In this document: piece after piece, positions 6,001 to 9,000 of the stretch
Numbering within the stretch: position 1 is the first letter of the stretch
Layout: every line of letters starts with the position of its first letter
Origin: a virus
Lineage: Duplodnaviria; Heunggongvirae; Uroviricota; Caudoviricetes
IMG/VR virus record: IMGVR_UViG_2713896798_000016
Reading direction: 5' to 3' (one strand)
Length of the DNA stretch: 28,031 nt
Program-made: the position numbers

Positions 6001-9000
6001 ATTGAGCAGCCCAAACCATCCCCATACCTTCAACAACAGGCTTCATAGGAACATAAGGCTCATTGTTAATTCCAACCAAAAAGAGATTTGTTCCGTGGAA
6101 TGGAACATTGATTGTGCGATCTGCAATTGCTAAACTAGTCATATCAGTTTTCTCGTGGTTAACTGGTAATTTAGAAGCCTCAATGGTTGCAGCCATTGAG
6201 GCTTCGCTGTTTTTAGCGACCATTCGCCACCTCTTCCCTAACACCTTTTGCCAGCAAACGAACAATTGCAGAGTTCAGAGATATACAGTCCATTTCCGCC
6301 AGGCGGCGAAGGTCTTCATTCAGCCGTGATGGAAGGCGAAGGTTGAGTTTGATATTTTTGCGCTCAGTGAAAAGTGTATCTTGCATTATCTAATCTCCTT
6401 TATTTGGTGCCAAAGTGACGCCATGAAGGCCATAATGCCACTATTGAAATCGTATGGCAATATGGCACCATGATTTTTTTTGAGAGATTTGCAATGGCCG
6501 AAAAACAAGTAAAAGACTACGACAAGTTCAACCTCCGTTTTCCTGACGGAATGCGAGATGCTATAGCTGAACGAGCCAAACGAAACGGGCGCTCTATGAA
6601 CTCAGAGATTGTTCAGATACTGGAAGATGCCTTGAATGCAGAAAATACACTCGGGGAAATAGCAGATAAAATTAACAGCGTCTCGGTTCCGCTAAATGTT
6701 GATGCGCTAGTTCAACTTCAAGCCCAGGTTATCGCCATGCAAAAAGAAATACAGGAAAAGTTCAGAGAGCAGAACGAAAAGTTGAGAGAACTACTAAATA
6801 AAAAACCCACCTGACGGTGGGCATAATCCATTACTGCGAAAGTTTATTAATGGAAAGGAAACCGCCAAAATTAGCCACCATGCCGCGCATCTCACACCCG
6901 CGCATGCACTTGCTGCATCTGTCCTTACGGATATCCGTGGTGGGGTTGTCGAACTCATCCGCCACAGCCCCGCCCGTGTAACCACACTCATCAGAGCGGT
7001 AGGTCCACATACAGGTATTCGCCAGCATGATACGACCGGGAAACAGCGCCCCGTCCGTCTCGGTCGGTGTGGCCAGCACAAACGAGGCTGTCATGGCCGT
7101 CAGCTCTGACATCTGCTCCACCACCCAGCGGTCGCTCAGCTCCTGCTCCGGGTCCGCTTCCGGATTGCCCGCCACAAAATTCACCGCATCCAGAAAACGG
7201 GCATACACCCGGCGGCGGACCACCGTGGCCCCCACCAGACTCTGCAGGTCTTCCGCCATCCCGGTGACCAGACCGAACAGATTGGACACCGTCAGTGACG
7301 GTCTGGCACTGCTGCCCTTCCCGCTCATCTCAAAACCGCTGCCGTCAATCGGGTATGCCTGATATTGCCGCCCCTGCCAGGTGACCGGCTCCCCTTTTTC
7401 ATTCAGTTCATTGCAGAAAAAATAGCGCTCACCGCCCTGCACCGTCAGGTCGATTTCCCAGAGCACCACCCGCGGTGACTGTTCTGATTTAACCGACTCG
7501 TTCAGACTTTCTTCATGAATGTCCTGCATCAGTTCACCACCTGCTCAATCGTACAACTGAAATCACTGTACCGGACGTTATCCGTGACGCTCCACTCCCG
7601 GCATACCACCCTGACCATCCGGTTATGTTTCGGCGGTCGCCACAAAAAGGCACGGTAACCACCATGCCACGATAAAAACTCTTCCAGCCAGCGCCGGGTT
7701 GACTCATCCGTCACCCGGAACACCGCCTGAAACGTCTTCAGTTGAGGATTCAGTCCTGTGGGGCGACGCTGTTCATAACCGTCACCAAACCGCACCCTCA
7801 CCACCGACGGCTTCTCACTCACCTGCATCCCTTCACGCGGGACCAGATGCAGCGTTTTTATCTCAGCCACTCAGCATTCCTCCGTCACGTCGCATGGACA
7901 ACATCACCGCCTGCACCCGCTGGTCAATCAGCTGCACAAGACTGCCTGCCGCCTCCGGCCCTATCTGGCCATTAGTCCCGTCATTCTGAATGGCGATATG
8001 GTAGACCGGGGAATACACCAGGCCCGCACTACCGTTCATACTGCCCACCGCTCGCACACCCAGCGAGCCATCCGCCGCCCGGGTCAGGGGCATAATGGCT
8101 TCAGGACCGGCCTCCCCCATCAGCCCCGCCCCTTTTGCAAAGGCAAAGTACGTGGGCGTATCCACAATACTGTTGCTGTACGCACTCAGGTTTGCCGAGG
8201 TATACACGCCGCCTTTTGCATTGGCCACCGCTCCGCCCAGCCAGTCACCAATGCTGCCGAGAAATCCTCCCGCACCGGACATACTGTTTGCCGCCGTCTT
8301 AATTCCGTTGACAATCGCGGCATTCATAAGAACTTTTGATATTTCCTGCAGCACTGATGAGGCCCAGCTGCGCCATTCCACTTTATTTCCGTTCAGCATC
8401 TCCGTGATGTTATTCACCATCCCTGAGATACCCTCCGTCGCAAGCTGTGCTGCCTGTGAGGCGTAATCGGACGCATTATCCACCCAGTTACTGAATCCCT
8501 CCTGCAGCCCTTTCTGCCAGTCCGCACGCTGCGCATCCGATTCGGCATAAAAGGCTTCCTGCTCTTTCAGACGTTCACTCAGATACTGTGCATTCTGCGC
8601 CAGAGCCTGTCTGTAAAAATCCTCACTGATATCCCCGGTCTGATACTGAGACTGAAGGTCCGCATCCTTCTGGCGGAAGCTGTCGCGGATCTGCTGCAAC
8701 TCCCGCATGCGTTCTCTGGCTCGTTCCCCCTGCCCGTACCCCAGCAGTTCAGCATCATTCGACGCACGCGCAGCCGCATTCTCATTCTTCAGTGTCTCTT
8801 CCCGGGATCGCAACTGTTCCCGGATTTTTTGCTGGTCAATCAGGGCCGCATTACGCAGCAGCTCCTGCTTCTGCATCTCCGTCAGGGTTTTCAGTTCGCC
8901 CTGCGCAGTCTGGTATTTCAGCTTCGCCAGCTCTGTATTCTGCCCCACCAGTGCCAGTTGCTCTTTCTGCTGCTTCAGCAGCCGGGAAAAACTGTCTTCC

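Follow-up and report, generated by a model that had tools for sequence, protein, structure and literature searches.

The P22 switch, AmrZ and the spacer analysed here

The closest described system is the immunity-I region of phage P22 (mnt, Pmnt/Pant, Omnt, Oarc, arc, sar, ant; the 'ant moron' of P22-like phages), in which the spacer between the divergent genes has separate Arc and Mnt operators (PMC2724298) and the ant module sits as a moron within the late operon (PMC2629481). Here, the equivalent spacer was analysed in IMG/VR virus record IMGVR_UViG_2713896798_000016 (Caudoviricetes; 28,031 nucleotides, the whole of which is called the window), where 107 bp (6387-6493) separate a minus-strand gene for an Arc-like ribbon-helix-helix (RHH) protein from a plus-strand gene for a Mnt-like RHH protein. 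The TGCCA/TGGCA motifs of this spacer are probably the recognition boxes of a tripartite RHH operator, with six boxes in three 13-bp units (A, B and C), for the Mnt-like repressor. The sequence comparisons thus point to an ordinary regulatory element in its expected place, namely the P22 immunity-I switch in a variant form whose tripartite operator is AmrZ-like; as far as the searches show, such a variant has not been described before.

Gene order and orientation in the window are as in P22; in both phages the two regulators belong to the Arc/Mnt family of RHH proteins and the divergent promoters, which in the window are predicted, lie in one spacer of about 100 bp, and a candidate for a sar-like antisense RNA is found in the window as well. 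The Mnt operator palindrome of P22 stands just before TTGAGA, and unit B of the window just before TTGAAA; the P22 record has GACCTATTGAGA, annotated as a potential mnt -35 element, at the place that matches the predicted -35 of Pmnt in the window. In P22, Mnt has a single palindrome of 17 bp (AGGTCCACCGTGGACCT), and Arc has an operator of 21 bp that is unrelated to it and lies inside Pant, between the -35 and the -10; the window instead has three 13-bp units that resemble each other. Its predicted -35 hexamers stand back to back with 5 nt between them, whereas P22 interdigitates -35 and -10 elements, and the predicted transcription starts are about 53 bp apart (about 38 bp in P22). The box sequence is TGSCA in the window, compared with GTCCAC for P22 Mnt and TAGA for P22 Arc, and the DNA-reading residues are K, N, R in both proteins of the window but Q, N, R and H, N, R in those of P22. 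Furthermore, the module of the window lies between the tail genes L and K of a long-tailed lambdoid Shiga toxin (Stx) phage, unlike that of P22.

Among the homologues of the Mnt-like protein with a structure on DNA, AmrZ (PDB 3QOQ) is the closest (E 5e-8). On the amrZ1 site (GTAC-TGGCA-AAA-CGCCG-GCACG), two AmrZ dimers, one per half-site, each place one beta-sheet on a 5'-GGC half-site, and 8 bp separate the half-site centres. The minor groove is narrowed by the A/T linker; the GG is recognised by K18, and the G opposite by R22 from the other chain. The protein also carries a C-terminal oligomerisation domain (PMC3325190). The AmrZ strand DKFVVRLP aligns with DKFNLRFP of the Mnt-like protein, such that K, N and R of the latter fall on K18, V20 and R22; the middle strand residue is thus Val in AmrZ and Asn in the Mnt-like protein. 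The geometry of the AmrZ site (GGC/GCC half-sites 8 bp apart, A/T linker) is found in full in units B and C, and in one box of unit A. AmrZ differs in being a chromosomal global regulator whose sites lie far upstream of the promoter, and in having two sites, compared with the three units of the window.

Another point of comparison are the Gifsy-type and other lambdoid prophage antirepressors, which are controlled by LexA. Like the antirepressor gene of the window, those of the Gifsy type are lambdoid prophage genes located outside the main immunity region, but their control is by LexA and not, as predicted for the window, by phage-encoded RHH proteins.

Boxes, units and their conservation among relatives

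TGCCA occurs in the spacer on the plus strand at 6408-6412 and 6436-6440, and on the minus strand (TGGCA on the plus strand) at 6455-6459 and 6463-6467. These four pentamers are exactly as given in a preliminary description of this DNA, and they lie between the divergent Arc-like (6213-6386, minus strand) and Mnt-like (6494-6814, plus strand) genes. The same description termed the latter two inverted copies; TGGCA is indeed present at 6455 and 6463, but TGNCA is a palindromic pattern, so that 'direct' and 'inverted' copies differ in their central base only. As a set of half-sites the four were incomplete, representing four of six boxes: two degenerate boxes, each one base off (TGACG, 6416-6420; GGCCA, 6428-6432), had been missed, and these complete three two-box units. 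Each box pairs with its neighbour at a distance of 8 bp between centres, with an A/T-rich linker of 3 bp, which yields six 5-bp boxes (TGNCA with a GCC/GGC core) in three 13-bp units: unit A at 6408-6420 (TGCCA-AAG-TGACG; boxes 6408-6412 and 6416-6420), the most degenerate of the three; unit B at 6428-6440 (GGCCA-TAA-TGCCA; boxes 6428-6432 and 6436-6440); and unit C at 6455-6467 (TGGCA-ATA-TGGCA; boxes 6455-6459 and 6463-6467), the only exact TGNCA-N3-TGNCA match in the window.

Over the whole window the pentamer shows no enrichment (85 sites observed, 89.5 expected), and the arc-mnt spacer is the only place in the window with at least three sites inside 56 bp. When the window was shuffled by dinucleotides, 32 of 1,000 shuffles produced a cluster of four sites; for the 107-bp spacer alone, 40 of 20,000 shuffles did so. 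The pattern TGNCA-N3-TGNCA with no more than one mismatch has three matches (at 6408, 6428 and 6455), and such a triple was obtained in 63 of 2,000 shuffles. A repeat search placed the pentamers in longer inverted arms, 6429-6440 with 6455-6466 (GCCATAATGCCA and TGGCAATATGGC; 11 of 12 positions) and 6405-6417 with 6458-6470 (TGGTGCCAAAGTG and CAATATGGCACCA; 11 of 13 positions). A unit-like 13-mer elsewhere, at 12701, lies inside an open reading frame of 565 amino acids and was dismissed as chance level.

The spacer was compared with those of six diverged phage relatives and of 160 loci fetched by the Mnt-like protein, together 93 distinct spacers, and each spacer was searched for its best triple of similar 13-mers. 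Most family members, which range from enterobacteria to Rhodobacterales, show the three-unit layout with similar spacing (z 4-13); the window itself is among the weakest cases (z 1.9) because its unit A is degenerate. Within the specificity group of the window (22 spacers), variation affects only three of 24 TG..CA positions, as opposed to eight of the 15 positions that form linkers or box centres (Fisher p 0.010); of the 21 positions that separate the units, 12 vary. Unit C (GCAATATGGCACCAT) is invariant in all 22 spacers; in unit B, GGCCA and TG.CAC are invariant and the linker and a box centre vary; a homologue of unit A is present throughout, with an A at position 6420 (i.e. TGACA) in 12 of the 22. 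The natural variants in this group include TGCCA to TGACA and several linker changes.

Across the family, the units change together with the recognition segment of the Mnt-like protein. Proteins with the arm and strand VKDYDKFN[LV]RF are found with GGCCA-TAA-TGCCA and TGGCA-ATA-TGGCA units, alike with Arc-like strands IKLNLRL, K[IT]TLRY or RTTLRY. The strand KFMLR[FL] pairs with TGTCAC-C-GTGACA (enterobacteria and many Rhodobacterales), the AmrZ-like strand KFVVRF with TGGCATTATGCC, KFTVRF with AGGCAAATTGCCT, and RFN[VI]RL with units of the CCAACTTGG type; a family-wide table of this kind, relating recognition residues to box sequences, should help to predict RHH specificity. Unit similarity had a partial rank correlation of 0.41 with the Mnt key, as opposed to 0.15 for the Arc key, and the similarity out of 13 positions was 9.07 for spacer pairs with the same Mnt and different Arc type, 7.63 for pairs with the same Arc and different Mnt type, and 6.83 for the background. 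By these comparisons, the unit sequence follows the N-terminal arm and beta-strand of the Mnt-like protein more than it follows the Arc-like protein. An Arc-clade-specific motif was also sought among spacers that share the Arc type and differ in Mnt type, and nothing common beyond the promoter hexamers was found.

One IMG/VR relative (L161) carries, between unit C and the mnt-like start codon, an array of at least three copies of a repeat of about 16 nt (TAGCTTTATAGCT-like); this array, within the last 70 nt before the mnt-like start, accounts for its longer spacer of 153 nt.

Predicted promoters, regulation and alternative readings

Both ribosome-binding sites lie inside the 107-bp spacer, and therefore both promoters must be located there too. 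For arc-ant, a minus-strand promoter (Pant, 6432-6460) is predicted with the -35 TTGCCA at 6460-6455, a 17-bp spacer, an extended TG at 6440-6439 and the -10 CATTAT at 6437-6432, with a start at about 6425. This promoter, overlapping the boxes, had already been proposed in the preliminary description and was recovered here by two scans (score 11.8; random segments have a 95th percentile of 9.9); the best-scoring minus-strand promoter of the enterobacterial relatives is at the same position, with TTGACA, TTGCCA or TTGCTA as the -35. For the mnt-like gene, a plus-strand promoter (Pmnt, 6444-6471) is predicted with the -35 TTGAAA at 6444-6449, a 16-bp spacer and the -10 CACCAT at 6466-6471, with a start at about 6478, in a T run; its scan score is weak (9.3). 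The CCATTG that holds the TTG of Pmnt is conserved from enterobacteria to alphaproteobacteria, and the enterobacterial relatives have TTGnnn within it and a -10-like hexamer 16-18 bp downstream.

The 17-bp spacer of Pant (6438-6454) contains the predicted -35 of Pmnt, and with only 5 nt between the two -35 hexamers an Arc operator of the P22 type does not fit; a 21-bp operator with two TAGA-type subsites was not found between the -35 and -10 of Pant, and the P22 Oarc sequence is absent.

Three other promoter candidates were considered. A P22-style interdigitated Pmnt (ATGCCA at 6435-6440, 17 bp, CAATAT at 6458-6463, plus an upstream TG; score 6.8) was kept as an alternative only, because it is less consistent across the relatives than TTGAAA-16-CACCAT. 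The combination TTGGCA (6413-6408), 17 bp, GATAAT (6390-6385) on the minus strand has the top raw score in the spacer (12.5) and was rejected as the main Pant because its start would fall inside arc and because it is lost in two relatives (L143, L145); it overlaps the first box of unit A, and with a start within arc it could express ant without arc. A plus-strand GTGCCA-18-CATAAT would give convergent transcripts and is without conservation.

Unit C overlaps the -35 of Pant, as well as the spacer and the first bases of the -10 of predicted Pmnt; unit B overlaps the -10 and the extended TG of Pant, and unit A falls at about +6 to +18 if arc-ant transcription starts as predicted. From this arrangement, from the co-variation with the Mnt-like recognition segment and from the AmrZ structure we infer the binder, its stoichiometry and the direction of regulation, as follows. 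The Mnt-like protein would bind most likely as one dimer of dimers per unit, with one beta-sheet per box, and the Lys and Arg of its strand would read the box guanines as in AmrZ on amrZ1; TGCCA and TGGCA would be equivalent targets, since the two-fold symmetry of an RHH dimer is centred on the box. With unit C placed on the -35 of Pant, unit B on the -10, and unit A on the initial 20 nt transcribed, occupation of the operator should switch arc-ant off, and with it the antirepressor in the lysogen. Unit C alone, located in the spacer and -10 of Pmnt, would allow the Mnt-like repressor to limit its own synthesis. This model of six boxes, three units and two promoters is testable by mutation. 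Antirepressors can induce prophages without RecA-mediated cleavage of the repressor, and can act in trans on other prophages; given the spread of the module (see below), its control could therefore bear on Stx-phage induction and on cross-talk between prophages.

Several observations weigh against an operator of the Mnt-like repressor. The statistics from the window alone are weak (p about 0.03; z 1.9 for the triple score), and the real support is that of the relatives. The -10 of Pmnt (CACCAT) is poor, and the tetrameric state of the Mnt-like protein is drawn from a low-confidence model (predicted local distance difference test, pLDDT, 64) and from analogy. The compared spacer pairs are phylogenetically non-independent, and the spacer is physically linked to the N-terminus of mnt, such that co-inheritance could mimic co-variation; the contrast between the Mnt and Arc keys is still fair because both genes flank the spacer, but a weaker, significant association with the Arc key persists. 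Phage SPN3UB has the beta-strands of the window with rather different units, so the N-terminal arm must contribute to specificity as well, an assumption that we take from published work on P22 Arc and Mnt. In the literature, no operator study and no binding, footprint or transcription start data were found for this Stx-phage module.

An extension of the preferred reading, which we regard as possible but doubtful, is that the Arc-like protein reads the boxes of the Mnt-like protein too, and that the two repressors compete or cooperate on units A to C. The strands of both proteins (IKLNLRL and DKFNLRF) present K, N and R; there is no room between the -35 hexamers for a P22-type Arc operator, and the Arc clades are without a separate common Arc-type motif. 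In addition, same-locus partners share their reading residues beyond random pairing, in 13 of 59 pairs overall and in eight of 25 enterobacterial pairs (p 0.0006; loci L002-L168). The eight matching enterobacterial pairs, however, represent only about four independent lineages; in relatives with TGSCA units as in the window, the Arc proteins have K,T,R or R,T,R; Arc proteins of the SFQ type occur with three unit types that are unrelated to one another, so that residue matching is not general; the Pfam match of the Arc-like protein is marginal. Somewhat more tentative still is the proposal from these residue data that the Arc-like and Mnt-like proteins have converged on the same reading residues and on one shared three-unit operator, here and in about four independent enterobacterial lineages. 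If so, two repressors of different oligomeric state and timing would act on one operator array, compared with two repressors and two unrelated operators in P22.

The preliminary description had interpreted the four pentamers as paired half-sites for two different RHH proteins, two TGCCA and two inverted TGGCA shared out between them. The motifs do behave as operator elements across the relatives; the pairing and the division between the proteins did not hold up. A pair of half-sites for each protein, in the manner of Oarc and Omnt, might be expected by analogy with the separate operators in the equivalent spacer of P22, and the inverted-repeat arms described above could be read in this way, but the arms are 27-55 bp apart from centre to centre, as opposed to 8-11 bp in known RHH dimer pairs, and the two overlooked boxes complete 8-bp pairs of AmrZ geometry. 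Moreover, the three units resemble each other within each relative and change jointly when the recognition segment of the Mnt-like protein changes, with a weaker link to the Arc-like protein, and no Arc-specific operator was found in the spacers compared; we therefore consider separate sites for the two proteins unlikely. That the motifs are promoter elements or chance occurrences only, i.e. -35-like hexamers (TTGCCA, ATGCCA, GTGCCA, TTGGCA) without repressor binding, appears highly improbable. It is true that every box with its adjacent base resembles TTGACA on one strand or the other, that several promoter-like combinations score moderately, and that the significance in the window alone is about 0.03; on the other hand, the units of the relatives are unlike -35 hexamers (e.g. 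GTCACCGTGAC, GTCCAATGGAC) while their positions and number are kept, unit A lies downstream of the predicted arc-ant start, and conservation tracks the TG..CA pattern and not the hexamer. We give hardly any credence to control of the antirepressor by LexA/SOS as in Gifsy prophages, with motifs unrelated to phage RHH regulation; other lambdoid prophage antirepressors are under LexA control, but a LexA box (CTGT-N8-ACAG, no more than two mismatches) is absent from 6223-6591.

Genes of the module and its phage context

The P22-type ant moron inserted between tail genes L and K comprises the mnt-like, arc-like and ant genes and probably the sar-like antisense RNA. The Mnt-like gene (6494-6814, plus strand) encodes 106 amino acids with the arm and strand KQVKDYDKFNLRF, and is preceded by a Shine-Dalgarno sequence, GAGAG, at 6482-6486; the protein matches the Pfam Arc family with 73 bits, and AmrZ (3qoq, 5e-8) and Mnt (1mnt, 1.4e-7) in PDB. 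Its C-terminal 50 amino acids were modelled as a long helix (residues 69-102; single-sequence model, low confidence, pLDDT 64), which is consistent with a Mnt-like oligomerisation domain. The Arc-like gene (6213-6386, minus strand; Shine-Dalgarno AGGAG at 6399-6395) encodes 57 amino acids with the beta-strand IKLNLRL and lies directly upstream of ant on the same strand; the protein is annotated as 'Arc-like repressor' in NC_049944, passes the Pfam Arc (PF03869) cut-off of 20.4 marginally (22.1 bits), and matches the Arc chains in PDB weakly.

The antirepressor gene ant (5219-6142, minus strand) encodes the Pfam domains P22_AR_N (1e-39) and P22_AR_C (1.5e-29), and its product is 56% identical to P22 Ant over the full length. 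Met1 of P22 Ant aligns with Met42 of the long ant reading frame, i.e. the ATG at 6142-6140; this is probably the true start, giving an Ant of 307 amino acids, and the annotated start at 6223, which overlaps the end of arc, would be too far upstream. A start at 6142 leaves an arc-ant spacer of about 70 nt as in P22, which would be covered by the antisense RNA. The latter is likely encoded at 6142-6208 on the plus strand, opposite the arc-ant junction and the ribosome-binding site of ant: the match to Rfam RF00262 scores 29.5 bits, under the gathering score of 43, yet it spans the full-length model at the expected place. The candidate folds into two hairpins (-32.3 kcal/mol, z -7.1); a terminator-like hairpin at 6174-6205 is followed by a T run, and upstream there is a promoter-like TTGATT (6108-6113), 17 bp, TAAACT (6131-6136) on the plus strand.

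The window represents a long-tailed Stx-converting phage, with 99.8% identity to Stx2a_WGPS8. The arc/mnt region is 99-100% identical to that of Stx2a_WGPS8, 2851, YYZ-2008, 1717 and other long-tailed Stx-converting phages; the module is also present in many Stx1, Stx2a and Stx2c phages, and is carried by 273 of 5,426 complete E. coli genomes. Between the stops of tail gene L and the mnt-like gene, a G+C-rich hairpin with a T run on the minus strand (6805-6822) is likely a terminator that would insulate the moron from upstream transcription of the late operon.

In the window as a whole, CTGT-N8-ACAG with no more than two mismatches is over-represented (155 observed, 109 expected; none of 100 shuffles reached 155). 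The sole exact match is at 24225-24240; four further matches are supplied by a tandem repeat at 17093-17682. This tandem repeat, first noticed as four identical CCATCACGCGGAACAG matches with a period of 162 bp, consists of 3.6 copies of a 162-bp (54-codon) unit with 95% matches.

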